A stretch of DNA of 61,647 nucleotides from Candidatus Omnitrophota bacterium (GCA_026387175.1 JAPLME010000005.1:1-61647), one strand, 5' to 3'. Positions 32,284-61,647 are shown, counted from the first letter of the stretch. A program made the numbers and translations. The notes: generated by a model not told the origin, from the sequence alone.

Positions 32284-32289
32284 AATATA

Positions 32290-36225: not shown

Positions 36226-36226
36226 G

Positions 36227-38099: not shown

Positions 38100-38105
38100 A
38101 AAAGC

Positions 38106-38147
38106 TTGACAACTTCTTGACAACTTATTGGCGTTATTCTGACAACA
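38106..38147 (+). promoter_or_regulatory. phased direct repeats TTGACAACTT x2 plus TGACAAC: candidate OmpR-family binding site
   Basis: TGACAAC starts at 38107, 38118 and 38140 (offsets 11 and 22 bp). The third overlaps a -35-like CTGACA, 19 nt upstream of TATACT (38164-38169). Confidence 0.45.
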
Positions 38148-38197
38148 CGTTTTACGATGTAGTGTATACTTAAGTGTAGGATTTGATAGAAATGTAG

Positions 38198-38221
38198 TAG
38201 GGGAGGTTTAAACCTCCCCTA
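38198..38221. repeat. perfect 24-nt palindrome TAGGGGAGGTTTAAACCTCCCCTA
   Basis: Exact self-complementarity, lying between the putative promoter and the DUF2341 gene start. Confidence 0.7.
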
Positions 38222-38258
38222 CATAGAAGTACCGGTCGTGCTATTACAGGACACTACA

Positions 38259-40835: not shown

Positions 40836-40844
40836 GTGGGGCTT

Positions 40845-40931
40845 GAGATTGCAGGGTGTCCCTTTGCAGGATGGCCCCAAAGCGGGCCAAAGCGGATGAG
40901 ATTGCAGGGTGTCCCCTTGCAGGATGGCCCC
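40845..40931. repeat. REP-family copies (reverse orientation): two units, 53-nt period
   Basis: GAGATTGCAGGGTGTCCCTTTGCAGGATGGCCCC (40845-40878) and GAGATTGCAGGGTGTCCCCTTGCAGGATGGCCCC (40898-40931). The spacer holds a CCAAAGCGG duplication. Confidence 0.9.
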
Positions 40932-40964
40932 AGGAGCGGGTTGTTACAGAAGAAGGTGACGGAC

Positions 40965-42553: not shown

Positions 42554-42651
42554 CAGGGTTCAGGGTGCAGGGTACAGGAGAGTGAGATTGAGGAGTGAGG
42601 GAAGAGGGTGAAGATTTTTTCTGAACCCTGGGCCCTGCCCCCTGAACCCTG
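42554..42651 (+). promoter_or_regulatory. long imperfect inverted repeat in the leader of the giant gene
   Basis: CAGGGTTCAGGGTGCAGGGTACAGG (42554-42578) against CTGAACCCTGGGCCCTGCCCCCTGAACCCTG (42621-42651), about 20 of 25 complementary by eye. It ends 3 nt before the GAGGA RBS (42655-42659). Confidence 0.5.
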
Positions 42652-42666
42652 ATAGAGGATAAGACG

Positions 42667-45600: not shown

Positions 45601-48600
45601 AATGTCAGTAATAACACTAACTGGATATTCGGCATGACCGGTTTTAATTATTGGACAAATACTTCGGGCGACGGCTTATGGTCTACAGCCGCCAACTGGT
45701 CCACAGGAGTTGTGCCGATTTCAGTTGACAATGTTGTATTTAACACCGTCTCAAGTTCAAACTGCAGTTTCGATACAGGGGTGACTAATACGACAGTCGG
45801 CAGCCTCACTTTAGGCGCCGGCTATATAGGCACCCTGACCTTAGCTAAAAGTATTACAATTGGCGGATTGCTTGTTGTAACTCAAGGGACATTTGATGCC
45901 GCTACCTACAATGTAACTGCGGCGGGCCTTCTTTCCACAGGAGCCTTAGCCCGCACACTGAATTTAGGCACAGGAAGCACCTGGACCATCTCAGGTAACT
46001 GGGGCTCTTCTGGCGGCAATATTACGGTTAACCCCGGCACCTCCACCGTTACTCTTACAGGAGACGGCACGGTTAAGGCCTGCCCCAGCGTCACCACTTT
46101 CTATAACCTCTCAGCGGCTGCGTCAGGCAAAACTACTACTATCGCCAGGGATCCTTCTAAGAATATATGGGTAGCAGGGGGACAAAGCACCAATACCCTT
46201 GCTTATTCTTCCGACGGCATTACTTGGACAGGCTTGGGCAAAAGCATATTTTCATATTGGGGTAACGCCGTTGCATGGAATGGTACTTGTTGGGTAGCAG
46301 GGGGCTATAGCGGTGGGACCGGCACGACTCTTGCCTATTCTTCCGATGGTATTAATTGGACTGGTTTAGGCGCAAGTCTGCTTAATAACTGGTGCAATTC
46401 TATTACCTGGAACGGCACCCGCTTCGTAGCGACAGGCAACGGCGCCAACACTCTTGCCTACTCCTCTGATGGTATTAACTGGAACGCAGTATCTAACTCA
46501 TTAACTAACATATTTTCGACTCAAGGCATGTGCTCTGCCTGGAACGGCACACGCTTTGTAGCCGGAGGCGCCGGTACTAATACTTTGGCATACTCTTCCG
46601 ACGGCATTACCTGGACAGGCTTAGGCACAAGCATATTCTCAAGCTATGGCTGTCGCGGTGTTGCCTGGAACGGCACCCGTTTCGTAGCAGTAGGAGATGG
46701 GCCTGATACAATTGCCTACTCTTCTAACGGGATTACCTGGACTCCGGCGTCTAACTCAATAAGCATATTCTCAACCCGTGGCCGCGGTATTGCCTGGAAC
46801 GGTACTCGTTTCGTAGCAGTAGGAGAAGGCACCAACTCCATTGCCTACTCTTCCGACGGCATTACCTGGACAGGCTTAGGTATAAGCATAATTAATAGCT
46901 ATGGCCAGTCTGTTGCCTGGAACGGTACTCGTTGGGTGGCAGGAGGCAATGGCTCAGGCAACCCCGGCATTGCCTACTCTTCTGACGGTATTACTTGGAC
47001 TGCAGTAGCTGGCTCACAATCCATCGTGGAAATATTCTGTGGCATTGCTTTCAGTTCCGCCCCCAAACTCGTTCCGCCCATCCTGAGCGATGACATAAAG
47101 GTCTCAAATGCCCTCACATTAGGCGGCGGCACACTCACCCGTAATGGCACTGACGTGGTGGCCTTAACCTTAACGAGCGCCACTCCTACTGTAACATTAG
47201 GAGGCTCCACAATAAGTAATAACGCTATTATAAGGTATGCTCCTGTAGCCAGTACAGGCACTACTACTGTCACTATCCCAGGAGGAGCCTACTCAGGTGC
47301 CAGGGTAGAGGCCTATACCAAGCTTAATGGAAGCGTCACCCAGCCTCAAGGAGCTGTTACATATCAGTTGGGGGGGAGTATCACCTCATTAGCTAATCTA
47401 AACATCTACGCTGATGTAGGGCTACCTGCCACTACATTCAGCTTAGTAAACGGCGCTAATAACTATAACCTCACTTCTTCCAGCCTTACATTAGGTAAGG
47501 ATGAAGTAACTAACGGCTCTGTCACATTTAACTCAGGTTCAGGCACAGTAGCTCTTGCCTCACTCACAAACCTCGTGCCTTCCACTAATAATAGCGGTTT
47601 ACACACTCTTAACCTTAATACATCTACCTGGAACGTGGCAGGGGACTGGGATACATCAGGTAATAACATCATACTTAACCCAAATACCTCAACCGTTAAC
47701 CTCACAGATAACGGCACACTTAAGACTAACCCTTCTACCACAAGCTTCTATAACCTGTCCTGCGCGGCATCAGGGAAGACCACTACAGTCGCCAGAGATC
47801 CTTCTAAGAATATGTGGGTGGCAGTGGGCAACGGCACTAACTCCATCGCCTACTCTTCAGACGGTATTGCCTGGGTAGGTTTAGGCTCAAGCATATTCTC
47901 AACTTATGGCTATGGCGTTTGCTGGAATGGCTCTAAGTTCGTGGCTGTAGGACAAGGCGCCAATTCCCTTGCTTACTCCTCCGACGGGATTACCTGGACA
48001 GGTTTGGGTTCAAGCATATTCTCAGCCTATGGCCGTGGCGTCTGTTGGAATGGCTCTAAGTTCGTGGCTGTAGGCGGCGGTACTAACTCCTTTGCCTATT
48101 CCTCTGATGGTATTATCTGGACAGGTTTGGGTAATAGCATATTCGGGAGTTCTGGTTTTGGCGTTGCCTGGAGCGGTATCCGCTTCGTAGCAGTAGGTTA
48201 CGCTAACAACACCCTTGCCTACTCTTCTGATGGTATTACCTGGACAGGCTTAGGTACAGGCATATTCTCAACCCAGAGCTATGGCGTCTGTTGGAACGGC
48301 TCTAAGTTCGTGGCAGGAGGCTATGGCACCAACTCCCTTGCCTACTCTTCTGATGGTATTACCTGGACAGGCCAAGGCGATATCGCACTCAGCTACAAGG
48401 ACCACGGTTTCGCCTGGAACGGCTCTAAATTCGTAGTAGTAGGCATAGGCAACACCCAAATTGGCTATTCAAATGATAACGGAGCTAGCTGGATAGGCTC
48501 AGGCGGAGGCATATTCTCATCCTCCGGCGCCGCCGCCGCCTGGAACGGCACCCGCTTCATAACCGTAGGCAACGGCACTAACTCTATTGCATACTCAACT

Positions 48601-51600
48601 GATGGCGTTACCTGGACAGGCCTGGGCACAAGTATATTCTCAGGCGGTGGCCTTGGCGTCTGCTCCATTCCCGCACCCAAACTCACTCCGCCTGTCTTAA
48701 GCGATGACATCCCGGTCTTAAATACCCTCACCTTAGGCGGCGGTACACTCACTCGTAACGGCACCGACCAGGTGGCCCTGACATTACGCAAAGACAATAC
48801 TGGCACGCCTCTAATATTAGGCGGTTCCACGATCAGTAATAACGCTATTATCCGCTTTGCTCCCGTAGCTGACCCATCAGCCGCTAAGCATGTCACTATA
48901 CCCGGAGGTGACTACGGCACCGCTCAGATAGAAGCCTATGTCCAGACCAATAGCGGTGTCGCCCAGCCTCAAGGGCTTATCGATTATCAGTTAGGGGGGA
49001 GCATTACAGGGGCCAGCAGCTTAAATGTCTACGCTGACTCAAACCTATCCACTACCTTTGGCTTAAATATCTATGACCTCTATAGCGTTACTCCGGGATA
49101 CGTATATATAGGTAAAGACTGCGCCAGAGGCCCGGTTACCTTTAATTCAGGCACAGGCGCATTGACCCTGGCCGCTACACCCCTCTCAAGCATAGTAGCG
49201 GATAACGCGGGAAGCCACACGCTCAATATGAACTCTTCCACCTGGAATATCTCCGGCGACTGGCGTCCTGAAGGGCTAACCAGTGATACCTCCAGCTCAC
49301 TCAGTGTAGTCCCCGGCACATCCACTCTTAATATCACCGGCACAGGCACTACAAATATCTACGGTTCAAAGACCGCCACTCCTTCGACGCCGCTTTATAA
49401 CCTTTACACACCTACCGGCGGCTTAGCGAATAAGACCATTAAGGTCAACGCCGGAAGCACGCTCCAAATAGCAGGCACTTTGAAATTACAGGGGCAGAGT
49501 TCAGGCAGCCTTCTTTATTTCCAGAGCACTACTGCAGGTACACCAGCTAACCTTAACGTCACGGGCTCATCCGTTAACATGCAATATCTTAATGTTACAG
49601 ACTCCAATGCTTCAGGTGGTAAGCCTATCCTTGCCTATTCTTCCACTATTGACACTTATAGCTTAAACCATAACTGGGTCAGCGGCACTCTTGGCAATGT
49701 TTACTGGACCAACGCGTCGGGCGATGGTAAATGGTCCACAGCCGCCAACTGGTCCACAGGCGCTGTGCCGGTTTCGACAGACTCAGTCGTGTTTAACGCC
49801 GCCTCAGTCGCAAACTGCTCAGTTGATGCCGGAGTGACTTCCAGCATAGCCCTAGCTAACCTCACCCTTGACAACGGCTACGCAGGCACGGTTACCTTAA
49901 GCTCCACCTCAGGGGTAGATTTAACAGTCACCAATTCCATTGCTATAAACACTAATGGCGGAAAACTTAACGACAATGGCAGGACAGTAAACTTTAAAAA
50001 TGCTTCTATTGCCAATGAAGCTAACCGCCTGACTTCAAGCGGCAATTGGAAGATGACAGCCAGCGGAAATTTTGCAAGTGCTTACAATGTTCAATTCTAC
50101 AGCCTTGAACTGGCAAGCGGAGTTACTGCGACTTTAACAGATACAGTATGCTTGAGACGCCTTATTCTTGGGAATAATTCTACACTTACAGGCAACTATA
50201 CTTTAAGCATTGCTGGCGCTACAAGCAATAATTTCATTACTCAAGGTACGGGGGCAACCATTAATTCAACAATTGGAATATGGCTGTATGCGGATGTAAG
50301 CCAGGGTGCCCTGATCACAACTGGGCAGGTAATGATAGCAAATACCGTTAATCATACTTTAACGATGACGGATAACTGGAATATTGGGGGAAATCTACAG
50401 ATTAGTGGTCAGAACTACGCTGGCGCAGCCGCCACCCTTGATACCAACGGCCACAACCTCACCGTAGGTAGTTACTTACAATTGGGATATAACGGTTCTT
50501 CCGGTAATCAGTATCTAGGTAAGATTCTTTTTAGAACCGGCACACATAGTATTAACGGCAATATATATGTTGGAGGTTCAAACACCCACGGCTACATCAG
50601 CATGGGCTCATCGCCGTCCGGCGCGGGCGGCGCATATTATGGCGATTTCACCGCTACTAATGCCTTTGCCTGGGTTTCGGGTGCCGACCTTTCTCTATAT
50701 GTAGGCACAGACGGAGGCAATACCCCGTATTATATAGAATTCACTGACAATGCGGGCAAGAAGGCAAAAGGATATCTTGGGTCAGGAGGGACAGGGGAGG
50801 CGCTGGGGAGTGAAATATTAACAAATGGTACGGCATTAGTAGATTCAAATTCAGATGGACTTGCTGATAGTGTAGCTACGCTGTCCAATGGAGGCGGAAG
50901 CGGCACCTTTTCAATTGTTACGGGGAATGGCTTTCCAGGAAACGCCCAGAGAGAAAGTCAAACTTCTACAAGCGGAGGTTATGGTTTTCAAATACAGCCT
51001 ACATCAGTCCCGGGTAGGTTACTAAAAACTTCTTTCAAATATAGAGCGAGTAATAGCATTAACTGGGAATTTGCTGATGGTGGTTATTATCCGTCGAACC
51101 CTCCGGCAAATACCGGAAATGCAGTTGATTGGTTTTTGTACAGAACAGAAAAATCTTGGAGGTTTGGTTTTTATAATTACGGCACTAGCGGTAGTTGGTT
51201 TGAAATTGGTAATATGTCCGTTAAGCAAGCCGTCGAGCCTGCAGGCCCCTCCTCTGGCGGCCTGCATATCGTCTCCGCGAATGGCGGCGCCACGCGCGCC
51301 TGGACTAACATAGACTCAGGGTTCAATTATAACAATATCTCATCTTACAAGATTTACTCTTCAGCCGATAATTCTTTAGCTCCCAATGCCTCAGCCACTG
51401 TCAATCTGGCAGGAGACCTTGATCTGCGTTACTGTTCTTTTGCTCCCGCAGGAACCATCAATTTTACCGGCGCAGGCACAAGTAAACTTTATGGCATACT
51501 CGATTACGCCTACAAAGACACAAGCATGGATACCATCGTTTTAAACAAAATACCGCTCTATAACCTCACCTCCACCGCCGTCGGTAAAACCATACAGGTA

Positions 51601-54600
51601 GAGGCAGGCAAGACCTTGCAGGTTGCAGGCAATATGACACTTCAGGGCGTCTCAGGCAACTTCATTAATTTCCAGAGCACGACTGCGGGAACCGCAGGTA
51701 ATCTTACCATGCTGGGCAACGCTACCAGTATGCAATACCTGAATGTCAAAGACTCTAATGCCTCAAGCGGGAAAAGTGTCATAACTCTTGGCTCTACCAA
51801 TGCCGGTAATAATACCAATTGGATATTTGGTGTTGCCGGCAATAACTACTGGCTCAATGCCTCAGGTGATGGTAAGTGGTCCACAGCTGGTAACTGGTCC
51901 ACCGGCGCTGTTCCGATTTCAACCGACTCGGTTATCTTTAATACCGCCTCAGTCTCAAACTGCTCAGTTGACCAGGCGGCTACAGTTGCCAACTTCACCC
52001 TCGACACAGGATACACAGGCACAGTTACTTTAAGCGCAACTTCAGGGCAGAATCTAACTGTTTCAGGAACCATCACCCTTAACTCCGGCAAACTTATTGA
52101 CAATGGAAGGACTGTTAATTTCGTAAACTTCAACATTGCCAATATAGCAGGGCTCCTTACCTCAACCGGCACCTGGGTTGAGACAAATAGCGGAACGTGT
52201 TCAAATCCTGCTTCCTACAGTAATTATATGTCAGTTCTTCAGATTGCAGACAACAAGACTTGCACGTTTACAAGTGATTGCCGTGTTAGTAATCAATTCA
52301 TCCTTGGTTCTTCTTCCGCAATTATTGTAAATGGAGGCTTTTACATTAACCCATCAATGAATAATCCTATTGTGCAAGGAACAGGAGCAGCGATAACAGT
52401 GAATAATTTGCTTTTTGAGAATAGCGCTTTCACTCAGGGAGCTATGAATATAACAGGCGATATTAGCGTGAGGACCTCTATATCCCCCGTTATTATGACT
52501 GGCAATTGGAGCACAACAGGAAACCTGAATCTTAGCCCAACTACATTCGGAGACACTAACGGCACAACGGTTCTTGATACCAACGGTTATAACCTTACGG
52601 TAGGTGGGAATATAAAGCTGGGCTCTTCTAATGTATCCTATCCTGGAAAACTTTCAGGCAAAATCCTATTTAGAACCGGCACACACACTATATCCGGGAA
52701 AATCTACACTGATAATGCAAGCGGCACATCATACACCCACGGCTATATCAGCATGGGCTCATCGCCATCCGGCGCGGGCGGCGCATATTATGGCGATTTC
52801 ACCGCTACTAATGCCTTTGCCTGGGTTTCGGGTGCCGACCTTTCAGCATACGCAGGTACTGATTCAGGCAGCACGTCATACTACGTTATATTCACCGATA
52901 GCGCAGGCAAAACTGCTAAGGGTTATATCGCAGGAAGCGGAAGCGGAGAGACATACGGAAGTGAACTCATTTCTAATACAACATTTGAGTCTGGGATTAC
53001 AGGGTGGAGTGGTCAAGGGGCAAATATATCCTGGAATACCACTACTCCGATAACGGGAAGCGGTTCGCTTCAAACATCGAATACCGCTTATGGCGGTGGT
53101 GCGTGTCTTCCAGTTAACACAACTGTTGGTTCATTTTATCGCGCAACCGGCAGCGTCAGAAAGGATTCCGGAAGTACTCGTAATTTGCGCTTTGGTTTCG
53201 GGGGGCCAAGCCACAACTATTCACCGCAGCCTATTATAGTTCCTTCTGCGCCAGCCGGATATTCAGGAACTTTTACCACTTACGGAACCGTAATTACGAA
53301 CTACAACACCTTGATTATAGTGAATGATGAATCTATTGATACAGTTTGCGATTGGGACGATTTATCTTGTAAGCAGCTTACCGAACCTCAGCCTTCCTTC
53401 TCCGGCGGCCTGCATATTGTCTCAGCCAATAATGGCACAACCCGCAGCTGGGCATCCGTAGATTCCGGATTTGATTACAATAATATCTCATCCTATAAAA
53501 TTTATAACTCAACCACTAATACCTTAGCTCCTGATGCCTCAGCCACAATTAACCTGGCAGGAGACCTTGATCTGCGTTACTGTTCTTTTGCCCCTGCCGG
53601 CATTATCAATATCACCGGCACAGGCACAAGCAAGCTCTATGGCATACTTGATTATACCTATAAAGATACGAGTATTGACACTCCCGTTGTAAACAAGATA
53701 CCTTTATATAACTTCACCTCAACCGTTGCGGGGAAGACCTTACAGGTTGAAGCGGGCAAGACCCTGCAAATCGCGGGCAATATGACGCTTCAGGGTGCAT
53801 CAGGAAATCTTCTGAATTTTCAGAGCACCACTGCGGGAACTGCAGGTAACCTTACCGTACTAGGCGGCGCCACAAATATGCAATACTTAAGTGTCAAGGA
53901 CTCCAATGCCTCGAGCGGGAAAGCGGTTGTAGCTTATAACTCTACCAATGTTAGCAATAATACCAACTGGATATTTGGCGTCACAGGTAATAACTATTGG
54001 CTCAATACCTCTGGCGATGGGAAATGGTCGACCGCCGCTAATTGGTCCACAGGCAGTGTGCCGGCTTCAATCGACAGTGTCTATTTTAACGCCGCCTCAA
54101 CCTCAAACTGCAGTGTTGATTCGGGAGTGACCCAGACAATAACCATTGCCAATCTCACCCTTGACACCGGTTACACAGGCACAGTTACCTTGAGCGCAAC
54201 TTCCGGAGTGGATTTAATAGTTAATAATTCCGTTACTATCAATACCAACGGCGGGAAACTGGTTGATAATGGCAGGGCAGTGAATTTTAAGAATGTTTCA
54301 ATTCCAAATGAAGCAAACCGCCTTGTTTCCACCGGTAACTGGAAGATGACAGCCAGTGGGAGTCTTGCCAATCTTTACGGAGGGAATCCATTTAACAGCC
54401 TTGAGCTGGCAGCCGGAGTTAACGCAAGTCTTTCAAGCGGCGGCATGCATCTTACAAGATACCTTAATATGGGGAGTAATTCTACTTTTAGCAATGGTTC
54501 AATATGTATATTCTGCCCTACCGTAGATAATTTCCTCATTTATAGCGCAGGCGCGACGATTCCGGTTCTATGGATTTTCTTAGCTTCTAGTAGAAGCCAA

Positions 54601-57600
54601 GGATCTCTGCCGTCGGGTGGATGTGTAATTGTTTGCGGGCCGGATGGCGGCGGTAATTATACTTTAACTATGACCAGTGATTGGAGTATAGGCGGTTACC
54701 TTAAGATATATGGCGGCGGCGGACCTGGCTCAACTGTTACCTTAGATACTAATAGCCATAATCTTACTGTACCTGGTAATTTATGGTTGGGACAGAGTAA
54801 TTCTAGTTACCCCAACTATTATCTGGGTAAAATCCTGTTCAGAAACGGTACCCATACTATAAATGGCAAGATTTATTGTGATGGCCAATACACCCACGGC
54901 TACATAAACATGGGCTCATCGCCATACGGCGCGGGCGGGACATACCTGGGCGATTTTACCACCGGCACCGCCTTTGCCTGGCTCTTTGGAGCGGACCTAT
55001 CTACATACGCCGGCACTGACAGCGACAGCACGCCGTATTACATCATTTTAACCGACAGCGCAGGCAAGACCGCGAAGGGATATATCGCAGCAGGCGGGAC
55101 AGGAGAGGCGCTCGGAACTGAATTAATCACAGCCAGCGATGATAGGACATTTGCGTCTGATACCGGATATTGGTCTCATAGCCCCGGGGTGGTATCGATA
55201 GCGGATGGAGTTTGTCACTTTTCCAATTCTATGAATAATGGTATAAGCCACGCTCAGTTTGCGGTAATGACTAAGAACAAACTTTATAAGTCGCTATTAA
55301 CAATCTCTAATTATAGTCAAGGAGGAGCATATGCCGCTAGTTGGGCTGATGGCGCTGGCGTTTCACACACATTCCGGTCTAATGGAAATAAGAGTGGTTA
55401 TTACGTAGGGGGATCTTATTTTGGTTTTATAGCTGCCGTTTCCGGGGCAACCACATTAGACATTGATGATATTTCATTGAAACAAGTCACCGAGCCTGCC
55501 GCTTCTTCTTCCGGCGGACTGCATATAGTATCCGCCAGTAACGGCGCCACCCGTAACTGGGCGAATATAGACTCGGGGTTTGATCCCAATAACATCTTAT
55601 ACTACAAAATCTACAACTCCGCCACCAATGCCTTGGCTCCCGACGCCTCAGCCACTGTCAATCTTGGCGGAGACCTGGACCTGCGTTACTGCTCACTCGC
55701 CCCTGCGGGGACTATAAATTTCACCGGCGCGGGCGCAAACGTTCTCTATGGTATCCTTGACTATGCTTATAATGACGCATCTGATCTTACGACCACCCTA
55801 CCGTTCTATAACCTCACCTCAACCGTCGCAGGCAAGACCATACAGGTAGAAGCAGGCAAGACCTTAAAGGTCGCGGGCAATATGACGCTTCAGGGCGCCT
55901 CAGGCAACCTGCTTAATTTCCAGAGCACGACTGCGGGAACCGCAGGTAACCTTACCGTGTTAGGCGGCGCCACAAATATGCAATACTTAAGTGTCAAGGA
56001 CTCCAATGCCTCAAGCGGGAAAGGTGTCGCAACGCTTAGTTCTACCAATGTCAGCAATAACACCAACTGGATATTCGGCGTCGCCGGAAACAGCTATTGG
56101 ACCAATGCATCAGGCGATGGTAAATGGTCCACGGCCGCTAACTGGTCCACAGGCAGTGTACCTACTTCAACTAGCAATGTCTATTTTAACACCGCCTCAA
56201 CCTCAAACTGCAGTGTTGACTCAGGAGTGACCCAGACAATAACCATTGCCAATCTCACCCTTGACACCGGTTACACAGGCACAGTTACCTTGAGCGCAAC
56301 CTCAGGAGTAGATTTAACTGTTACCAACTCCGTCACCATCAACACTAACGGCGGAAAACTGGTTGATAACGGTAGGACGGTAAGCTTTACGAATGTCTCT
56401 ATTGTTTATGAAGATTACCGCTTGACTTCTACCGGCAACTGGAAGATGACGGCCAGCGGAAATGTAACCAATGCTCACTGGAGAAATATATTTAAAAGCC
56501 TTGAATTAGCAAGCGGAGTTACTGCGACTATGACATCAGGTATGCAGCTTGCGAGGCGTCTTATCCTTGGGAATAATTCTACGCTTAGCAGTAGCAGCGG
56601 CGGCTCAGTATGTTTATATCCCGACGTAGATAATTTCATTACTCAGGGTACAGGAGCAACCATCACTTCGTTTCTATGGATTCAAATACAATCTAATAAA
56701 TCACAGGGGACTCTGACTACAGCTGGGGATGTAAGTTTTTCTGAAACTGATAACTATACTTTAACTATGACCGGTAACTGGAATCTCGGTGGTTGTCTTT
56801 ATATACAGGGTAGGGCGTTATCTGGCTCAACTGCTACCTTAGATACCAATGGCTATAACCTTACTGTAAGCACTTATTTGAGGGTAGGAAATTCCGACGT
56901 TTCATCTCCCAATAGTTATCTCGGCAAAATTCTGTTTAAAAACGGCACCCACACGATTGGCGGGAAGATTTACAGCGGCGGCCAATACACCCATGGCTGG
57001 ATCAGCATGGGCGCAACCTCGTCAGGCGCAACTACACACAACTCATACCCCTACCTGGGCGACTTCAGCGCTACCGGAGCTTTTGCTTATCTTCCGGGAG
57101 TAGACCTTTCTCCCTATGTCGGTACCGACTCGGGCAGCACTCCTTACTATATAATCTTTACTGACAATGCGGGAAAAACGGCTAAGGGCTATCTGGCAGC
57201 AGGCGGCACAGGAGAGGCGTTGGGAAGTGATGCTGTAGTAAATGGAAATATGGAGTTGGATAGTAACTGGATCAATCAGTCAACTCCCACAACAAATGAA
57301 AGGAGCTCTACTTACAATCATACTTCCGGCGGCACATACAGCCGTCATGTCGTAGGAACCAGTAATAGCCAGGGTATCCAGGAAGTAATAGCTTCTGCCC
57401 TTACTATTGGAAAATTATATAATTACAATCTCTGGGTTTATCCGGTAACAGGTAATTATTTCGGGGGTTATTTATCAGGTAATAACGGTTGCTCTCTCAT
57501 TATGCCCTCCGCGGCATTAAATAGCTGGAATAATTTCTCTGTTTACGGAACCTGCACCAATACCACTTTGGCCCCGCTTATCTATACCGGAATTGCCGGC

Positions 57601-60600
57601 CCCTCTGAGTTTTATGTGGATGATGTTTCGGTCAAGCAGGTTACCGAGCCTAAACTTGCTTATGACGGCGGCGTACATATTGTCTCTTCTGCCAATGGCG
57701 CCACCCGCGCCTGGACATCCGTAGATTCCGGATTTAATTATAGTCGTATCTCATCCTATAAAATCTACAACTCCGGCACCAATGCCTTAGCTCCCAATTA
57801 TTCAGCCACTGTCAATCTGGGAGGCGACTTAGATTTGCGTTACTGCTCAATAAGTCCTGCAGTTGGTACGATTAACTTCACCGGCACGGGCACAACCACA
57901 AGCTCTCTCTATGCCGTCTCTAGCTATGCTTATATGGACATGGTCTTAGATAATCCTAATGTCTATTATACTATCCCGCTATATAATCTCACCGCGAATT
58001 ATGCGACTGCCGGGTATGGCAAGACCCTGAAGGTAGAGGCGGGCAAGACCTTAAGCATCGCAGGTAACATGACGCTTCAGGGCGCCTCAGGTAGCCTGAT
58101 GAATTTTCAGAGCACCACTGCAGGCACTGCCGGCAGTTTAAATGTGCTGGGAACCGCAACCAATATGCAATACCTGAACGTCAAAGACTCCGATGCATCG
58201 AGCGGCAAGAAAGTCGTTACCACCGGTTCATCCGACTCAGGCAACAACCTAAACTGGGTCTTCGGTACAGCAGGCACGGTTTATTGGACCAATGCTTCAG
58301 GCGACGGCCTCTGGTCTACAGCCGCTAACTGGTCCACCGGCGCGGTGCCTCAGGCGACCGACTCAGTTGTCTTTAATACCGCCTCAACCTCAAATTGCTC
58401 AGTAGACGCCGGAGTAACTTCCAGTATAACCCTGGCCAATCTCACCCTTGATACCGGCTACACAGGCACACTTACCTTAAGCGCAACCTCAGGGGTGGAT
58501 TTAACCGTTACCAATTCAGTTATCATTAACACTAACGGCGGAATGTTCAATGATAATGGAAGGACCGTAAATTTCAAAAATGTTTCCATCGCCTACGATG
58601 CCAGCCATCTTACCTCAACCGGAAACTGGAAAATGACAGCCGATGGTAATATTTCAAATTCTTATAATGCCGCTGGTGTTTACACTTCGTTTAAAAACCT
58701 TGAGCTGGCATCCGGAGTTAAGGCAAATTTAACATACTTTGTTAATACAAAAGGCCTTATTATGAGAAATAATTCTCAAGCCAATTCTACCGGCGGCTAT
58801 ACTTTATACTTTCCTTCGGTTACAAATAATGACTTCATTAGCCAGGAAACAGGAGCAACCATTTCGGTGCCGATTTCAATAGGCCCAATTTCTACTAGTT
58901 TGAGTCAAAAGGCCTTAACCACAAATGGGAATGTAAGCGTTATTTATTTTGCCGGCACCCTAACCATGACCGATAACTGGAGTATTTTGGGGAACTTGAC
59001 ATTTTATGGTTCATCCAACGCTAGCCCTGCCATCTTAGACACTAATGGCCATAACCTTAGTGTGGGCAGTTATTTGAAATTAGGATGGAACAGGAATTCT
59101 TCATATGCTAATGACTACCTTGGTAAAGTCCTGTTTGGGACCGGCACCCACACTATCGGCGGTAACATTTATGTTGATGGTGGAAGCTCGCCCTCAACTT
59201 GCTATACTCACGGCTACCTTGACTTTGGCTCTGCTACGGTAAATGTAGGCGGGGACCTCGATTTCAGATGTGCCTCAGTTACTCCCGGGACTTCAAACGT
59301 AATTCTTACCGGTGCTACTGCTGCCAATATTTATAGCATTGTAGATTATACATATAAAGACGCTACATTAGATAACCCGGTATTAAATACCGCACCGCTC
59401 TATAAATTAACCTCAAGCGTAGCTGGTAAGACCGTTAGCTTCGAGGCAGGGAAGACCGTAACAATAGCCAATAACCTGAGCCTTGCGGGAACCGGCACGG
59501 GTAGTAATCTCCTGACTTTAAACTCCACCACAGCAGGCACTGCCGCTAACCTAAATGTCGCAAGCGGCGCTACAGTTACCGGCATGAACTACTTAAGTGT
59601 CAAAGACTCCGATGCCTCCAGCGGAAAGGGTGTTGTGGCGAATAACTCCACAAATGTAAGCAATAACACCAATTGGTTCTTTGGCGCAGCCGGTAGTAAT
59701 TATTGGATCAATATTTCCGGTGATGGAAAATGGTCCACAGCCGCTAACTGGTCCACGGGCAGCGTGCCGACTACAGCCGATAATGTTATATTAAACTCTA
59801 TATCAACCACAAACTGCAGTTTCGATACAGGGGTGACTAATACCACAGTAGCAAGCCTCACTCTGGATACAGGCTACACTGGTACTCTGACATTAGCTAA
59901 GGGTATTACAGTCACCGGAGCACTTACAGTAACCCAAGGAACATTTGATGTCGCTACATTTAATGTAAGTGCAGCGAGCTTCACCTCCACAGGAATATTG
60001 GCCCGCACATTGAACTTAGGTACAGGAACATGGACTATCTCAGGTAACTGGGACTCTTCGGGAGGCAACATTACGGTTAACCCCGGCACCTCCACCGTTA
60101 CTCTTACAGGAGACGGCACAGTTAAGGCTTGTCCAAGTGTTACTACTTTTTATAATCTCTCAGCCGCCGCCTCAGGTAAGACTACTACCATTGCTCGCGA
60201 TCCTTCTAAGAATACGTGGGTAGGCATAGGTTATGGCACCAATGCCCTCGCCTACTCTTCCGATGGCATTAACTGGACCGGATTAGGTACAAGCATATTT
60301 TCAAATGGTGGTATGGCTGCCGCTTGGAACGGCACCCGTTTTGTGGCTGTAGGGCAAGGCCAAGCTACAACCTCCATCGCATATTCTTTTGATGGCATCA
60401 CCTGGAATGCAGTACCTAACTCGAGACAAATATTGGACTATGGCTGTGATGTCGCCTGGAACGGTACTCGTTGGGTAGCGGCAGGCGCAACAGGTAGCAG
60501 CATTAATGGATCTATTGCGTATTCTCCAGACGGCATTACCTGGACTGGTTTAGGGACAAACGTATTTCCAGATCGAGCTTGGGCAGTTTGCTGGAACGGC

Positions 60601-61647
60601 ACCCGTTTTGTAGCAGGAGGAAATGGTGCCAATACTCTTGCCTACTCTCCCGATGGCCTTACCTGGACAGGTTTGGGGTCAAGCATATTTTCAACTCTTT
60701 GCCGTAAAATTGCCTGGAACGGTTCCAGGTTTGTCGCTGTGGGGCAAGGTACCAACACCCTTGCCTACTCCTCCGATGGGACGACCTGGGTGGGCTTAGG
60801 CTCAAGCACATTCTCAGCATCGTGTTCTGGTATCGTCTGGAACGGCACTCGCTTTGTAGCCGTAGGCTTAGGTACCAACTCCATTGCCTACTCCTCCGAT
60901 GGCATTACCTGGACAGGCTTAGGCGCAAACATATTTATAAGCGGAGGTTATGGAGTTGCTTGGAACGGCACCCGTTTCATAGCAGGAGGCTACGGTACTA
61001 ATTCTATCGGGTACTCCTCCGATGGCATTACCTGGACAGGAATTACCGCTAAAACCATATTCTCAACAGATGGTTATGCCGGCGCCTCTTGCTCAGCCCC
61101 CAAGCTTGTCCCACCCATCCTGAGCGATGACATAATGATCTCACATGCCCTCACCTTAGGCGGCGGCACACTCACTCGTAACTCTACCGACGTGGTAGCC
61201 TTAACCTTAACTAGCGCCACTCCTGCAGTAACATTGGGAGGCTCCACAATAAGTAATAACGCTATTATAAGATATGCTCCCGTAGCTAGCACAGGTACTA
61301 CCACCATTACCATCCCCGGAGGCTCTTATTCAGGTGCTAAGATAGAAGCATACTCTAAGTTTAATAGCGGATTAGCCTCACCTCAATCTCAAGGAGCCCT
61401 CACATATCAGTTAGGGGGGAGCATCACCTCATTAGCCAATCTAAACATCTATGCTGATGTAGGCCTACCTGCCACCACATTCAGCTTAGTAAATGGCGGT
61501 AATAATTATAACCTCACCTCTTCATCTCTTACACTCGGTAAGGATGAGGTAACTAACGGCACTGTCACATTTAACTCAGGTTCCGGCACAGTAGCTCTAC
61601 CGTCTCTTACAAACCTCGTTCCTTCCACTAATAATAGCGGTTTACAC
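42667..61647 (+). CDS. giant secreted repeat protein, 3'-open (at least 6327 aa in the window)
   Basis: Frame 1 has no stop from ATG 42667 to the last base, 18981 nt = 6327 codons. I checked triplets by hand to ~49.75 kb. Beyond that, the ORF track lists no frame-1 ORF, which it would if a stop existed. Signal peptide MKTMTGKTIRVIVALTMVLQPLMSESAYA-Q. G/T/N/S-rich beta-helix-like sequence, Asp-box propellers, CBM-like domains. Confidence 0.9.
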   Translation, partial: MKTMTGKTIRVIVALTMVLQPLMSESAYAQFAGGSGAGWGTAVTSSSTTLSSVTADTNVKLIRASQTVTYVQRLSGGNSLITLSAAFPNNNLKVGQKIVVNVTTNTSFNGTFTITWVASDYCSFKYYQPLGTVASTADTGTVGGHYSSLIGWEAAGGNTTAECYNDWASGLSENLTISGNSATSTSYMKITVPLSERNTGSTGTGFKLAGTLTVGDSYAAIEDIEVTGVATVSSGMTLNTNGNILFTGGLTIEGTATLNAGNSNMVFSSGDISLFGMLNAQGSMITFNGSTVALSNSVFTPGQATIAFSGTSSWTPGTVTYKTVEFGSGTTTITGTATVANKVVLATGSSGAVNGGAITLTGDLVCTSGTGGTTAITLNSTAQPQSISGGGAATLPQTININKSGQTTTVSGAIGLQNVNIQAGTVEFAGGYNYTIGAGKTIALSDTPSAILKFTGTSASRKVTLRSSSPGTAWNLTNPASAVVTPVLTDVQDSVASRASVDATNAGNINSSRNTNWLFDAAGIVYWTNGSGDGKWSTAANWSTGAVPISTDSVIFNNTSTTNCAVDQTVTIANLTLSAGYSPGTVTLSPTAGQDLTVTNTIALNANGGKLTDNGRNVNFVNSTIANDTPINNLFSTGNWKQTASGTISGPSGNSMFNSLEIAAGVISNFSAGGCFIKKSLTLRSNSSIVGADILLYGSGLINDCIVMETGSTIPSSSTIEIYAAGADLTQGALSIGGNLRLDYINNHSVAMTGDWNIGGNLEIFGYSPSGSTATLDTNSHNLTVGGYLQVGNSNPSYANGMLGKILFKGGTHTISGNIYVGGGSTSSTCNTHGYIDFGSSTVNVVGNIDFRCASVTPGTSTVNLTGTGTTNIYSIVDYTYKDATLDNPVLNTAPLYKLTSSVAGKTISFEAGKTVTIANNLSLAGTGTGANLLTLNSTTAGTAANLNVSGTATGMNYLSVKDSNASSGKGIIAINSTNVSNNTNWIFGMTGFNYWTNTSGDGLWSTAANWSTGVVPISVDNVVFNTVSSSNCSFDTGVTNTTVGSLTLGAGYIGTLTLAKSITIGGLLVVTQGTFDAATYNVTAAGLLSTGALARTLNLGTGSTWTISGNWGSSGGNITVNPGTSTVTLTGDGTVKACPSVTTFYNLSAAASGKTTTIARDPSKNIWVAGGQSTNTLAYSSDGITWTGLGKSIFSYWGNAVAWNGTCWVAGGYSGGTGTTLAYSSDGINWTGLGASLLNNWCNSITWNGTRFVATGNGANTLAYSSDGINWNAVSNSLTNIFSTQGMCSAWNGTRFVAGGAGTNTLAYSSDGITWTGLGTSIFSSYGCRGVAWNGTRFVAVGDGPDTIAYSSNGITWTPASNSISIFSTRGRGIAWNGTRFVAVGEGTNSIAYSSDGITWTGLGISIINSYGQSVAWNGTRWVAGGNGSGNPGIAYSSDGITWTAVAGSQSIVEIFCGIAFSSAPKLVPPILSDDIKVSNALTLGGGTLTRNGTDVVALTLTSATPTVTLGGSTISNNAIIRYAPVASTGTTTVTIPGGAYSGARVEAYTKLNGSVTQPQGAVTYQLGGSITSLANLNIYADVGLPATTFSLVNGANNYNLTSSSLTLGKDEVTNGSVTFNSGSGTVALASLTNLVPSTNNSGLHTLNLNTSTWNVAGDWDTSGNNIILNPNTSTVNLTDNGTLKTNPSTTSFYNLSCAASGKTTTVARDPSKNMWVAVGNGTNSIAYSSDGIAWVGLGSSIFSTYGYGVCWNGSKFVAVGQGANSLAYSSDGITWTGLGSSIFSAYGRGVCWNGSKFVAVGGGTNSFAYSSDGIIWTGLGNSIFGSSGFGVAWSGIRFVAVGYANNTLAYSSDGITWTGLGTGIFSTQSYGVCWNGSKFVAGGYGTNSLAYSSDGITWTGQGDIALSYKDHGFAWNGSKFVVVGIGNTQIGYSNDNGASWIGSGGGIFSSSGAAAAWNGTRFITVGNGTNSIAYSTDGVTWTGLGTSIFSGGGLGVCSIPAPKLTPPVLSDDIPVLNTLTLGGGTLTRNGTDQVALTLRKDNTGTPLILGGSTISNNAIIRFAPVADPSAAKHVTIPGGDYGTAQIEAYVQTNSGVAQPQGLIDYQLGGSITGASSLNVYADSNLSTTFGLNIYDLYSVTPGYVYIGKDCARGPVTFNSGTGALTLAATPLSSIVADNAGSHTLNMNSSTWNISGDWRPEGLTSDTSSSLSVVPGTSTLNITGTGTTNIYGSKTATPSTPLYNLYTPTGGLANKTIKVNAGSTLQIAGTLKLQGQSSGSLLYFQSTTAGTPANLNVTGSSVNMQYLNVTDSNASGGKPILAYSSTIDTYSLNHNWVSGTLGNVYWTNASGDGKWSTAANWSTGAVPVSTDSVVFNAASVANCSVDAGVTSSIALANLTLDNGYAGTVTLSSTSGVDLTVTNSIAINTNGGKLNDNGRTVNFKNASIANEANRLTSSGNWKMTASGNFASAYNVQFYSLELASGVTATLTDTVCLRRLILGNNSTLTGNYTLSIAGATSNNFITQGTGATINSTIGIWLYADVSQGALITTGQVMIANTVNHTLTMTDNWNIGGNLQISGQNYAGAAATLDTNGHNLTVGSYLQLGYNGSSGNQYLGKILFRTGTHSINGNIYVGGSNTHGYISMGSSPSGAGGAYYGDFTATNAFAWVSGADLSLYVGTDGGNTPYYIEFTDNAGKKAKGYLGSGGTGEALGSEILTNGTALVDSNSDGLADSVATLSNGGGSGTFSIVTGNGFPGNAQRESQTSTSGGYGFQIQPTSVPGRLLKTSFKYRASNSINWEFADGGYYPSNPPANTGNAVDWFLYRTEKSWRFGFYNYGTSGSWFEIGNMSVKQAVEPAGPSSGGLHIVSANGGATRAWTNIDSGFNYNNISSYKIYSSADNSLAPNASATVNLAGDLDLRYCSFAPAGTINFTGAGTSKLYGILDYAYKDTSMDTIVLNKIPLYNLTSTAVGKTIQVEAGKTLQVAGNMTLQGVSGNFINFQSTTAGTAGNLTMLGNATSMQYLNVKDSNASSGKSVITLGSTNAGNNTNWIFGVAGNNYWLNASGDGKWSTAGNWSTGAVPISTDSVIFNTASVSNCSVDQAATVANFTLDTGYTGTVTLSATSGQNLTVSGTITLNSGKLIDNGRTVNFVNFNIANIAGLLTSTGTWVETNSGTCSNPASYSNYMSVLQIADNKTCTFTSDCRVSNQFILGSSSAIIVNGGFYINPSMNNPIVQGTGAAITVNNLLFENSAFTQGAMNITGDISVRTSISPVIMTGNWSTTGNLNLSPTTFGDTNGTTVLDTNGYNLTVGGNIKLGSSNVSYPGKLSGKILFRTGTHTISGKIYTDNASGTSYTHGYISMGSSPSGAGGAYYGDFTATNAFAWVSGADLSAYAGTDSGSTSYYVIFTDSAGKTAKGYIAGSGSGETYGSELISNTTFESGITGWSGQGANISWNTTTPITGSGSLQTSNTAYGGGACLPVNTTVGSFYRATGSVRKDSGSTRNLRFGFGGPSHNYSPQPIIVPSAPAGYSGTFTTYGTVITNYNTLIIVNDESIDTVCDWDDLSCKQLTEPQPSFSGGLHIVSANNGTTRSWASVDSGFDYNNISSYKIYNSTTNTLAPDASATINLAGDLDLRYCSFAPAGIINITGTGTSKLYGILDYTYKDTSIDTPVVNKIPLYNFTSTVAGKTLQVEAGKTLQIAGNMTLQGASGNLLNFQSTTAGTAGNLTVLGGATNMQYLSVKDSNASSGKAVVAYNSTNVSNNTNWIFGVTGNNYWLNTSGDGKWSTAANWSTGSVPASIDSVYFNAASTSNCSVDSGVTQTITIANLTLDTGYTGTVTLSATSGVDLIVNNSVTINTNGGKLVDNGRAVNFKNVSIPNEANRLVSTGNWKMTASGSLANLYGGNPFNSLELAAGVNASLSSGGMHLTRYLNMGSNSTFSNGSICIFCPTVDNFLIYSAGATIPVLWIFLASSRSQGSLPSGGCVIVCGPDGGGNYTLTMTSDWSIGGYLKIYGGGGPGSTVTLDTNSHNLTVPGNLWLGQSNSSYPNYYLGKILFRNGTHTINGKIYCDGQYTHGYINMGSSPYGAGGTYLGDFTTGTAFAWLFGADLSTYAGTDSDSTPYYIILTDSAGKTAKGYIAAGGTGEALGTELITASDDRTFASDTGYWSHSPGVVSIADGVCHFSNSMNNGISHAQFAVMTKNKLYKSLLTISNYSQGGAYAASWADGAGVSHTFRSNGNKSGYYVGGSYFGFIAAVSGATTLDIDDISLKQVTEPAASSSGGLHIVSASNGATRNWANIDSGFDPNNILYYKIYNSATNALAPDASATVNLGGDLDLRYCSLAPAGTINFTGAGANVLYGILDYAYNDASDLTTTLPFYNLTSTVAGKTIQVEAGKTLKVAGNMTLQGASGNLLNFQSTTAGTAGNLTVLGGATNMQYLSVKDSNASSGKGVATLSSTNVSNNTNWIFGVAGNSYWTNASGDGKWSTAANWSTGSVPTSTSNVYFNTASTSNCSVDSGVTQTITIANLTLDTGYTGTVTLSATSGVDLTVTNSVTINTNGGKLVDNGRTVSFTNVSIVYEDYRLTSTGNWKMTASGNVTNAHWRNIFKSLELASGVTATMTSGMQLARRLILGNNSTLSSSSGGSVCLYPDVDNFITQGTGATITSFLWIQIQSNKSQGTLTTAGDVSFSETDNYTLTMTGNWNLGGCLYIQGRALSGSTATLDTNGYNLTVSTYLRVGNSDVSSPNSYLGKILFKNGTHTIGGKIYSGGQYTHGWISMGATSSGATTHNSYPYLGDFSATGAFAYLPGVDLSPYVGTDSGSTPYYIIFTDNAGKTAKGYLAAGGTGEALGSDAVVNGNMELDSNWINQSTPTTNERSSTYNHTSGGTYSRHVVGTSNSQGIQEVIASALTIGKLYNYNLWVYPVTGNYFGGYLSGNNGCSLIMPSAALNSWNNFSVYGTCTNTTLAPLIYTGIAGPSEFYVDDVSVKQVTEPKLAYDGGVHIVSSANGATRAWTSVDSGFNYSRISSYKIYNSGTNALAPNYSATVNLGGDLDLRYCSISPAVGTINFTGTGTTTSSLYAVSSYAYMDMVLDNPNVYYTIPLYNLTANYATAGYGKTLKVEAGKTLSIAGNMTLQGASGSLMNFQSTTAGTAGSLNVLGTATNMQYLNVKDSDASSGKKVVTTGSSDSGNNLNWVFGTAGTVYWTNASGDGLWSTAANWSTGAVPQATDSVVFNTASTSNCSVDAGVTSSITLANLTLDTGYTGTLTLSATSGVDLTVTNSVIINTNGGMFNDNGRTVNFKNVSIAYDASHLTSTGNWKMTADGNISNSYNAAGVYTSFKNLELASGVKANLTYFVNTKGLIMRNNSQANSTGGYTLYFPSVTNNDFISQETGATISVPISIGPISTSLSQKALTTNGNVSVIYFAGTLTMTDNWSILGNLTFYGSSNASPAILDTNGHNLSVGSYLKLGWNRNSSYANDYLGKVLFGTGTHTIGGNIYVDGGSSPSTCYTHGYLDFGSATVNVGGDLDFRCASVTPGTSNVILTGATAANIYSIVDYTYKDATLDNPVLNTAPLYKLTSSVAGKTVSFEAGKTVTIANNLSLAGTGTGSNLLTLNSTTAGTAANLNVASGATVTGMNYLSVKDSDASSGKGVVANNSTNVSNNTNWFFGAAGSNYWINISGDGKWSTAANWSTGSVPTTADNVILNSISTTNCSFDTGVTNTTVASLTLDTGYTGTLTLAKGITVTGALTVTQGTFDVATFNVSAASFTSTGILARTLNLGTGTWTISGNWDSSGGNITVNPGTSTVTLTGDGTVKACPSVTTFYNLSAAASGKTTTIARDPSKNTWVGIGYGTNALAYSSDGINWTGLGTSIFSNGGMAAAWNGTRFVAVGQGQATTSIAYSFDGITWNAVPNSRQILDYGCDVAWNGTRWVAAGATGSSINGSIAYSPDGITWTGLGTNVFPDRAWAVCWNGTRFVAGGNGANTLAYSPDGLTWTGLGSSIFSTLCRKIAWNGSRFVAVGQGTNTLAYSSDGTTWVGLGSSTFSASCSGIVWNGTRFVAVGLGTNSIAYSSDGITWTGLGANIFISGGYGVAWNGTRFIAGGYGTNSIGYSSDGITWTGITAKTIFSTDGYAGASCSAPKLVPPILSDDIMISHALTLGGGTLTRNSTDVVALTLTSATPAVTLGGSTISNNAIIRYAPVASTGTTTITIPGGSYSGAKIEAYSKFNSGLASPQSQGALTYQLGGSITSLANLNIYADVGLPATTFSLVNGGNNYNLTSSSLTLGKDEVTNGTVTFNSGSGTVALPSLTNLVPSTNNSGLH
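44239..47603 (+). repeat. super-repeat, first occurrence of the segment seen again 14.04 kb downstream
   Basis: Colinear nucleotide similarity with 58279-61647; for example 45361-45420 versus 59401-59466 is nearly identical. Landmark W codons at 44245/58285 and 45652/59704. Confidence 0.85.
46141..47080 (+). repeat. seven-bladed Asp-box (BNR-like) beta-propeller, copy 1
   Basis: Seven ~42-aa units of the form LAYSSDGITWTGLG.SIFS..G..VAWNGTRFVAVG.GTN; SxDxGxTW is the Asp-box. Confidence 0.8.
47788..48693 (+). repeat. seven-bladed Asp-box beta-propeller, copy 2
   Basis: Seven units (AYSSDGI.WTGLG...CWNGSKFVAVG). The sixth blade is degenerate (GYSNDNGASWIGSG). Confidence 0.8.
49699..58278 (+). 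repeat. four tandem ~2.1-kb (~715-aa) modules inside the giant ORF
   Basis: Module heads (YW.N.SGDGKWSTA.NWSTG) have their W codons at 49705, 51850, 53998, 56098, and the next at 58285. Periods are 2145, 2148, 2100 and 2187 nt. Confidence 0.9.
58279..61647 (+). repeat. super-repeat, second occurrence (cut by the window end)
   Basis: See 44239-47603. The last bases AATAATAGCGGTTTACAC match 47586-47603, offset 14044. Confidence 0.85.
60190..61117 (+). repeat. seven-bladed Asp-box beta-propeller, copy 3 (paralogous to copy 1)
   Basis: Seven AYS.DG.TW units, followed by the same APKLVPPILSDD linker as copy 1. Confidence 0.8.

Follow-up and report, generated by a model that had tools for sequence, protein, structure and literature searches.

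A giant open reading frame with four insert-bearing modules

The 61,647-nt contig JAPLME010000005.1 (the window, meaning the whole stretch of DNA that was analysed) ends in a giant open reading frame (ORF) that encodes tandem modules of predicted beta-helix fold, four of which carry an inserted unit with a different head, resembling a carbohydrate-binding module (CBM), at the same place. From 42646 to 61647 (+) the window is one stop-free frame, with a Met codon at 42667; the product begins with MKTMTGKTIRVIVALTMVLQPLMSESAYAQ, which is signal-peptide-like as judged by eye from the sequence and not by a predictor. Three kinds of module make up the visible protein (Table 1): short ones (S1 and S2), ones rich in the motif SxDxGxTW (starting at 45649 and 59701) and the tandem insert-bearing modules M1–M4. 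The start motif YW.N.SGDG.WST opens every module, and the six scaffold modules S1, S2 and M1–M4 were aligned with MAFFT. Between THGYISMG and SATVNLAGDLDLRYCS, M1–M4 hold ~250 extra residues, and S1 and S2 run from THGYIDFG directly into SSTVNV..DFRCAS with no insert; a motif search agreed with the alignment. In each insert-bearing module the unit sits between THGY(I)xMG and a DLDLRYCS rung, and the insertion point and both linkers, SSPSGAGG.YYGDF upstream and YKIYNS.TN.LAP.AS downstream, are common to all four.

Sequence identity collapses inside the heads

Comparison of M1–M4 located an abrupt loss of similarity at the same place in each module, the four segments concerned being the heads V1–V4. 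Protein identity drops from ~75% to ~12% over 115–132 amino acids (aa); as a mean over pairs, it is 72–77% in the 30 columns before the head, 6–18% inside and 63–81% after it. In sliding windows the module N terminus is 66–81% identical, the scaffold middle 28–46%, the part just before the head 69–77% and the part after it 63–86%, and whole modules are 57–61% identical. Between heads, BLASTP gave at best 25–29% identity and 25–31 bits over partial alignments (V2–V4 and V3–V4), with V1 weaker still. Nonsynonymous divergence (dN, Nei–Gojobori) is ~0.2 in the flanks versus at least 0.9–1.3 in the heads, whose alignment is unreliable.

Codon-aligned DNA identity among M1–M4 mostly lies at 55–85% in 20-codon windows, and the synonymous divergence (dS, Nei–Gojobori) of flanks and scaffold is 0.6–2.4, mostly 0.9–2.2, with a dN/dS of 0.1–0.2. 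A flank dS near saturation combined with so low a dN/dS indicates old duplicates kept alike by purifying selection. Only three short patches, each between one module pair, reach 93–100% DNA identity in these windows: M1/M2 at 50581–50690, M3/M4 at about alignment columns 31–60 and M2/M3 at about columns 731–750. The M1/M2 patch lies within a 116-nt tract (Table 1) that is an exception, the flanks outside it being 58–83% identical at the DNA level, and gene conversion among M1–M4 is visibly limited to occasional short tracts. GC content at third codon positions (GC3) is low (0.23–0.40) in the poorly conserved scaffold middles (50100–50470, 52270, 54430–54670 and 56470–56830) and also in the heads, and high (0.5–0.75) in the conserved module parts; the contrast could stem from codon selection or from GC-biased conversion acting on the conserved segments.

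These results bear on an earlier, sequence-only reading of the locus, which had described near-identical modules with a different cassette at the same place in a homogenised scaffold. Different segments at a common site are indeed present, and all four sets of head coordinates translate in frame. The common last strand was recovered in V1–V4 (GNMSVKQAVEP, DDLSCKQLTEP, DDISLKQVTEP and DDVSVKQVTEP, respectively), the identity boundaries around the heads are as sharp in protein identity and dN as predicted, and the short modules at 44.2 and 58.3 kb lack the whole insert. To call the heads mutually unalignable was fair, given their BLASTP scores. The modules themselves are not near-identical, however, least of all in their middles, and dS, dN/dS and the small number of conversion patches contradict homogenisation. 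The segments 50611–50693 and 52771–52853, said to differ at one base, mismatch at 55 of 83 positions; the true partner of the former is 52762–52844, a 9-nt shift, with 1 mismatch.

The insert belongs to a large family of frame-plus-head units

A word-indexed protein search with the whole of module M2 returned 3 proteins only, including one (P0002) in which N-flank, jelly roll and C-flank lie within a protein that otherwise matches PHROG tail-protein families. The four inserts were combined into a profile for an exhaustive HMMER search, which retrieved 1,084 representatives at E ≤ 1e-3, 529 of them at E ≤ 1e-10, counted in a library of representatives at 50% identity. Many members are standalone proteins of 250–270 aa that the profile covers end to end. 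The unit consists of an N-side frame of ~62 aa (YYGDF..AFAW..DLS.Y.GTD..TPYYI.FTD.AGK.AKGY...GTGE.LGSE), a head of 115–132 aa in M1–M4, and a C-side frame of ~50 aa (S.KQVTEP...GG.HIVS..NG.TR.W...DSGF.YN.I..YKIY); among 130 units extracted from the 150 best outside hits, the median head length is 125 aa. All four window units match the flank hidden Markov models (HMMs) over their full length, a circular result in that the HMMs were built from these units. Window flanks are 57–65% identical to those of units in unrelated proteins, versus 66–71% between sister modules. Because these flanks recur in >1,000 other proteins, they are the two sides of a mobile unit of ~250 aa and not part of the beta-helix scaffold, to which the sequence-only reading had assigned them.

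Some relatives depart from the usual arrangement. P0004 (1,476 aa, Logan) is a tandem array of at least six frame-plus-head units that lacks beta-helix spacers, and P0056 has a unit whose head is cut down to a 38-aa stub, which suggests that the frame can exist without a full head. In Pfam, the heads and frames of all modules had no match. NCBIfam and PHROGs returned nothing for the frame (window units and standalone relatives), PDB sequences nothing at E ≤ 10 for the unit profile or for V1 and V2, and GenBank phages nothing in a tblastn search with a standalone relative. In GTDB species genomes, neither the unit patterns nor a degenerate DNA pattern for the C-side frame found a match, and the module profile gave remote N-terminal motif matches only.

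Every relative whose context was examined is phage-linked, with its gene in or next to a structural or tail region of an uncultivated phage. IMG/VR includes 34 viral contigs that encode the unit. The gene for P0162 stands between head/connector genes (portal and capsid) and a tape-measure gene, and the 51-kb contig that encodes P0045 also has portal and capsid genes of SU10 type. On contig L092 the gene order is tape measure, phrog_8610 and the unit-bearing protein, and phrog_8610 also matches the C terminus of P0002. Among the window ORFs scanned there are no phage genes; upstream of the giant ORF are housekeeping genes, a secretin cluster and a two-component system.

Modelled heads resemble carbohydrate-binding modules

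The M4 unit was modelled with AlphaFold2 from an alignment of 25 same-type relatives (predicted local distance difference test (pLDDT) 81.7, predicted template-modelling score (pTM) 0.79). Foldseek against the PDB placed CBMs at the top, namely a porphyran-binding module (8xmz), CBM16 (2zex), CBM4-2 (2y64), CBM22 (4xuo) and CBM61, with E values of 1e-7 to 1e-5 (1.5e-7 to 7e-6 for the first four) and target-normalised template-modelling (TM) scores of 0.65–0.76. Against BFVD, the same model matched CenC-like CBMs of phage tail fibres and host-specificity proteins. GE.LGSE(L/I).TNG forms the first and S.KQVTEP the terminal strand of the modelled jelly roll; since these conserved motifs are outer strands of the jelly roll, the frame includes the base of the head in this model.

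The whole of M3 was modelled at comparable scores (pLDDT 80.2, pTM 0.77), with a low-confidence C-terminal part. Residues ~28–300 form short beta strands, which we read as a beta-helix, and the inserted unit occupies residues ~300–551. The top PDB match of M3 was the beta-helix tailspike TSP4 of phage CBA120 (5w6h), although the superposition was poor. Its V3 head matched the CBMs 8xmz, 4xup and 2zex with probability 1.00 and TM scores of 0.5–0.58. In these models the V4 and V3 heads are shown as CBM4/16/22-like jelly rolls.

All-against-all BLAST sorted the 130 heads into 31 clusters. Profile–profile comparison with hhalign connected clusters to one another with 94–98% probability and the window heads to family clusters with 62–99%; V2 was matched to cluster 0 (90.6%) and cluster 1 (80.7%), and V1 weakly to cluster 2 (62%). 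No CBM match to M1–M4 was found with Pfam CBM_4_9 at E ≤ 1. The V4-type relative P0009 reached 25.5 bits on that model, against a cut-off of 25.9, and P0011 reached 18.6.

Heads and flanks have separate histories

V4 falls in the largest head cluster (cluster 0, 47 units) and is 43% identical to the head of P0006, while V3 belongs to the second (cluster 1, 30 units) and shares 36% identity both with P0021 and with a head encoded on the viral contig L096 (110 kb). V1 and V2 each stand alone in this set of 130 heads. A separate search found V1-type heads in P0166 (39% identity) and P0167 (46% over two thirds of V1), both without the frame, and V1-type heads circulate outside the frame family too. 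The jelly roll of P0167 is encoded at 3199–3864 of a crAss-like phage contig (L161, Logan SRR27686861_3306), beside crAss-type ring and muzzle genes.

The nearest neighbours of each window flank are its three sisters (66–71% identity, versus ≤65% for outsiders). V4, V3 and V1, in contrast, are 43%, 36% and 39% identical to outside heads, versus at most 29% over partial alignments to sister heads. In a three-way alignment of M4, its sister M3 and P0006, the flank sites at which M4 agrees with one partner only favour M3 over P0006 by 31 to 7, and the head sites favour P0006 over M3 by 41 to 7 (Fisher p = 2.7e-10); the same count in five other trios gave p = 1e-8 to 1e-3. Between units that share a head type, divergence is similar in flanks and head (53% and 49% identity, M4 versus P0006), so in-place divergence predicts ~60% identity between sister heads and not ~20%. 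Family-wide, 26% of pairs with ≥80% flank identity share a head cluster, versus 22% of pairs with <40%. Flank similarity therefore has no power to predict head type, which indicates that heads have been reassorted relative to the frame across the family.

Judged from these sequence comparisons, V1, V3 and V4 show a mosaic ancestry, and at least three of the four heads appear to have been recombined in and not to have diverged in place. The sequence-only reading had proposed cassette-style diversification of CBM-like jelly rolls. Its first half survives in that the ancestry of the heads differs from that of the flanks, although nothing points to an active mechanism; the jelly rolls are borne out for V4 and V3 by AlphaFold2 and Foldseek, with V2 and V1 reached through profile–profile comparison only.

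Gene neighbourhood, internal repeats and related giant ORFs

The housekeeping genes upstream are those of an anaerobe (cysK, nifS, RNase Y, xseA, dxs, VorB, gltX and glnS). Glutaminyl-tRNA synthetase (GlnRS) has its best match among GTDB genomes in a Candidatus Omnitrophota metagenome-assembled genome (75% identity), and the host is probably a member of the Omnitrophota. The Logan samples SRR25046533, SRR20698638, ERR15302166 and ERR15302179 contain this organism. A same-strand cluster at 31438–42524 lies directly upstream of the giant ORF; besides the genes in Table 1, it holds an unannotated 231-aa ORF between the AAA_22 ATPase and secretin genes, and it may be the export and regulation apparatus of the giant protein. 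A gene for an IS200/Y1-type transposase (30024–30608) stands between the housekeeping block and this secretin cluster, 12 kb upstream of the giant ORF, and is the sole mobile-element gene among the scanned ORFs. GC content falls from ~0.52 to ~0.44 across 24–32 kb, and a 1,387-aa ORF at 25695–29858 has no Pfam or NCBIfam match.

Within the first ~5,200 residues of the giant ORF (42646–58281), no match to SecA or any other Pfam family was found. Beyond the signal-peptide-like start, no hydrophobic stretch was obvious in a by-eye reading of the translation made with no transmembrane predictor. The first ~60 residues of all six scaffold modules (for example, 49702–49880) score 13–21 bits against Pfam Amnionless (cut-off 30.4) over YW.N.SGDG.WST..NWSTG.VP, the only sub-threshold match of the modules, which probably reflects a short motif shared at the start of beta-helix proteins and not homology. 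At 46100–48700 and 60150–61050 lie 41–43-aa repeats (period 123–129 nt; ..AYSSDGITWTG.G......WNG.RFVAVG) that contain the SxDxGxTW Asp-box motif, have a weak Pfam match to DUF6242 only, and probably form beta-propellers.

A higher-order repeat with a period of ~14,040 nt, comprising an S module and the modules that follow it, relates 45036–47604 to 59082–61647 inside the giant gene. Its copies are 77–91% identical at the DNA level, far more alike than M1–M4 are among themselves, which points to a recent large internal duplication. On this basis, the part of the gene past the window end may contain another block of modules with inserts.

Three JGI metagenome contigs (L124–L126) encode related giant ORFs that are stop-free over 7,047, 4,215 and 6,005 aa and contain S-type and SxDxGxTW modules; the SxDxGxTW modules of L124 are ~60% identical to those of the window. 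At the THGY site, 3/3 lack the insert. L124 (JGI Ga0315279_10000772) has two frame-plus-head units in tandem at residues ~4385–4808, outside the THGY loop and with two further head types, indicating that the unit moves between positions within this giant-protein family.

Table 1 Coordinates of the giant ORF, its modules and inserted units, and the genes directly upstream
Feature	Position in window	Strand	Basis
AAA_22 ATPase gene	31438-32283	+	Pfam scan
Secretin gene (type II/III secretion family), 8 kb upstream of giant ORF	32982-34577	+	Pfam scan
TPR protein gene	34600-36225	+	Pfam scan
Histidine kinase and OmpR-type response regulator genes	36227-38099	+	Pfam scan
DUF2341 protein gene (865 aa)	38238-40835	+	Pfam scan
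FGE-sulfatase-domain protein gene (562 aa)	40836-42524	+	Pfam scan
Giant ORF (at least 6,327 aa, runs off window end)	42667-61647	+	Only long stop-free frame in stretch; translation
Short module S1, beta-helix scaffold without insert (THGYIDFG followed by SSTVNV)	44242-45648	+	Six-module alignment, motif search
Module M1 (715 aa)	49702-51846	+	Start motif, alignment, pairwise identity
Inserted unit of M1 (269 aa); V1 head ~50812-51240	50584-51390	+	Motif search, flank HMMs, unit extraction
116-nt tract, 2 mismatches to 52729-52844 in M2; gene-conversion patch	50578-50693	+	Codon-aligned windows, direct comparison
Module M2 (716 aa)	51847-53994	+	Start motif, alignment, pairwise identity
Inserted unit of M2 (268 aa); V2 head ~52963-53388	52735-53538	+	Motif search, unit extraction
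Module M3 (700 aa)	53995-56094	+	Start motif, alignment, AlphaFold2 model
Inserted unit of M3 (252 aa); V3 head ~55120-55497	54892-55647	+	Motif search, unit extraction
Module M4 (729 aa)	56095-58281	+	Start motif, alignment, pairwise identity
Inserted unit of M4 (271 aa); V4 head ~57229-57651	56989-57801	+	AlphaFold2, Foldseek, head clustering
Short module S2, without insert	58282-59700	+	Start motif, alignment, motif search

Discussion

With a probability that we put at about 0.68, the locus encodes a giant secreted protein in which four old tandem beta-helix modules bear phage-type units whose CBM-like heads have been exchanged by historical shuffling. The phage-type unit would have been inserted into a loop of the beta-helix module, and only once, because the insertion point and linkers are common to all four modules. 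The module would then have been duplicated to four copies, and recombination inside the conserved frame would have swapped in other heads from a pool common to this protein and phage proteins. The frame may act as an adaptor that presents the head. The giant protein could be a secreted or surface fibre that displays several predicted glycan- or receptor-binding heads of putatively different ligand specificities and attaches the cell to prey, hosts or substrates, and it may be exported through the secretin-type system encoded just upstream.

Several points weigh against this reading. Ligand binding, surface location and export route of the giant protein are predictions only, and the Omnitrophota assignment of the host is made from a single marker gene, GlnRS. 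The CBM-like nature of V2 and V1 is suggested by profile–profile comparison only, with a weak match for V1, and V2 has no detectable same-type relative, so that the case for exchange covers V1, V3 and V4. Sister flanks are only slightly closer to one another than to the best outside flanks, and with flank dS near saturation all events are old and the order proposed for them is tentative. The 130 units that underlie the head clusters come from the best 150 hits and are a biased sample. Secondary structure, pTM and the member with the 38-aa stub suggest that the two frame sides pack into a single adaptor domain. Low GC3 in the heads (0.31–0.43, versus a mean of 0.49) was considered as a sign of foreign origin and rejected, as the divergent scaffold is equally low.

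Head exchange was weighed against histories in which either no head or every whole unit moved. If one ancestral head had been copied into four duplicates, and the heads had then diverged under diversifying selection or relaxed constraint while the flanks were purified, no exchange would be needed. The age of the duplicates (flank dS 0.9–2.2), the distant homology of the heads still visible to profile methods and the lack of an outside relative for V2 agree with such in-place divergence. It is nevertheless improbable: V4, V3 and V1 are closer to outside heads than to their sisters, the site-pattern test rejects a single history for flank and head (p down to 2.7e-10) and same-type units show similar rates of flank and head divergence. 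We consider it just as improbable that four full units were inserted independently at the same loop, for example from different phages, or that gene conversion within the gene later made the frames partly uniform. The similarity of outside flanks (57–65%) approaches that between sister flanks (66–71%), the unit is mobile, as the tandem pair at another position in L124 illustrates, and conversion patches between modules are present. Independent insertion, however, sits poorly with the insertion point and linkers shared by all four modules and with the three sisters being the nearest neighbours of each window flank, and homogenisation with flanks that show none at the DNA level bar the one 116-nt tract.

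Programmed variation, with the heads as targets of a diversity-generating retroelement, a shufflon or invertase, or silent-cassette gene conversion, is very unlikely, the argument for it being a general resemblance to the variable ligand-binding domains of such systems only. Searches with V1–V4 by blastn and tblastn on both window strands found the heads themselves and no silent copies, and no reverse transcriptase, invertase or site-specific recombinase is present among the window ORFs scanned. A diversity-generating retroelement target was rejected for lack of a reverse transcriptase and of a second head copy in these scopes, and pilE/pilS-type silent cassettes or a shufflon for lack of donor copies and an invertase. 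The differences between heads are also whole-domain, with indels, and not adenine-directed substitutions in a short variable repeat. Head exchange is historical domain shuffling and not a programmed switch, with no sign of switching in the window. The least credible explanation is an assembly artefact, with a metagenome assembler having joined strain variants of one module end to end. A metagenomic source is probable and the giant gene is repetitive, but the modules differ throughout, with ~70% DNA identity and a dS of ~1–2, by far more than strains would and enough to make assembly easy; the reading frame stays open over 19 kb, and three independent metagenomes contain related giant ORFs of the same module grammar.

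The favoured reading, of exchanged heads on duplicated modules, recalls several known systems. Giant RTX adhesins such as MpIBP have a long repetitive stalk with several different ligand-binding domains and thus several targets per protein. Their heads are grouped at the tip, whereas the window protein has one per stalk module, and neither RTX or BIg repeats nor a type I secretion signal is visible in it. With the CBM4/CBM9/CBM16/CBM22 group (Pfam CBM_4_9, PF02018), V4 and V3 share the predicted fold, as the TM matches to CBM16, CBM4-2, CBM22, CBM61 and the porphyran-binding CBM indicate, and the heads share a sequence grammar, in which N..FE....W opens the domain and ..Y.DD.S. marks its last strand. 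Classical CBMs lack the conserved two-sided frame that the window heads have; the window heads, for their part, are attached to no glycoside hydrolase and have no Pfam match at E ≤ 1 and no PDB sequence match at E ≤ 10.

The closest parallels in phages are CBM insertions in the adhesion devices of lactococcal and other siphophages, found in evolved Dit, BppA, neck-passage and Tal proteins (PMC6669499, PMC10688798). There too, a jelly-roll CBM sits in a loop of a structural protein for host recognition, varies between relatives and binds a host-surface saccharide, and relatives of the window unit lie directly after a tape-measure gene and a Dit-like gene and in a PHROG 'tail protein'. The carrier in those phages is a virion protein, however, whereas here it is a bacterial giant secreted protein, as predicted, with four different heads in one polypeptide, and the window frame has no match in PHROGs, Pfam, NCBIfam or GenBank phages. 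Adhesins of the gp38 type in the T4 superfamily have hypervariable segments framed by conserved glycine-rich motifs (PMC3157838), and resemble the unit in that a conserved framework brackets the specificity-determining parts, offers landmarks for recombination and goes with mosaic histories. In gp38 the variable parts are short loops in one small domain, whereas a whole jelly roll of ~120 aa is exchanged here, and the two have no sequence or fold relationship.

Giant genes with CBM-like and beta-helix regions beside type II secretion genes have been described in Omnitrophota, with a proposed role in prey adhesion (West-Roberts et al., bioRxiv 10.1101/2023.11.21.568195), and such proteins are also covered in a second preprint (bioRxiv 10.64898/2026.06.07.730766). 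The window ORF appears to resemble these proteins in its great length, in long beta-helix regions, in repeats that are old and diverged, in repeated domains of CBM or lectin type, in neighbouring genes of type II secretion or pilus type and in a proposed adhesion to prey or hosts. The described proteins also have SecA-like regions (divergent SecA DEAD), dockerin and multiple transmembrane regions, none of which was seen in the visible 6.3 kaa here, although the part beyond the window could contain them, and their CBM35–dockerin ladder is a different repeat from that of the window. The passages searched make no mention of a frame of phage type that bears four different heads.

It is already established that phages have modular receptor-binding domains and that giant proteins can have arrays of lectin-like domains, and the finding extends this theme and overturns nothing. 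What it adds is that the frame and the binding head of this family have separable histories, and that the adhesion apparatus of a giant bacterial protein is linked to phage host-recognition hardware. The phenomenon belongs to a widespread, undescribed family of units and not to this gene alone: a large domain family, with >1,000 representative clusters, is absent from Pfam, NCBIfam, PHROGs, PDB and GenBank phages. A bolder proposal, which we put forward tentatively and consider on the whole unlikely, is that a putatively predatory or episymbiotic Omnitrophota bacterium took over a plug-in receptor-binding unit otherwise seen in phage-linked proteins, mounted four heads on a giant surface fibre and drew them from one recombining head pool shared with the phages of its environment. 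If true, host-recognition modules would pass between phages and bacterial predators or epibionts directed at the same cell surfaces, and the frame would be a natural scaffold for swapping binding specificities; in either case it could serve as one for the exchange of binding domains. If the heads bind different surface glycans, they would provide a ready-made panel for finding out what an uncultured nanobacterium attaches to.

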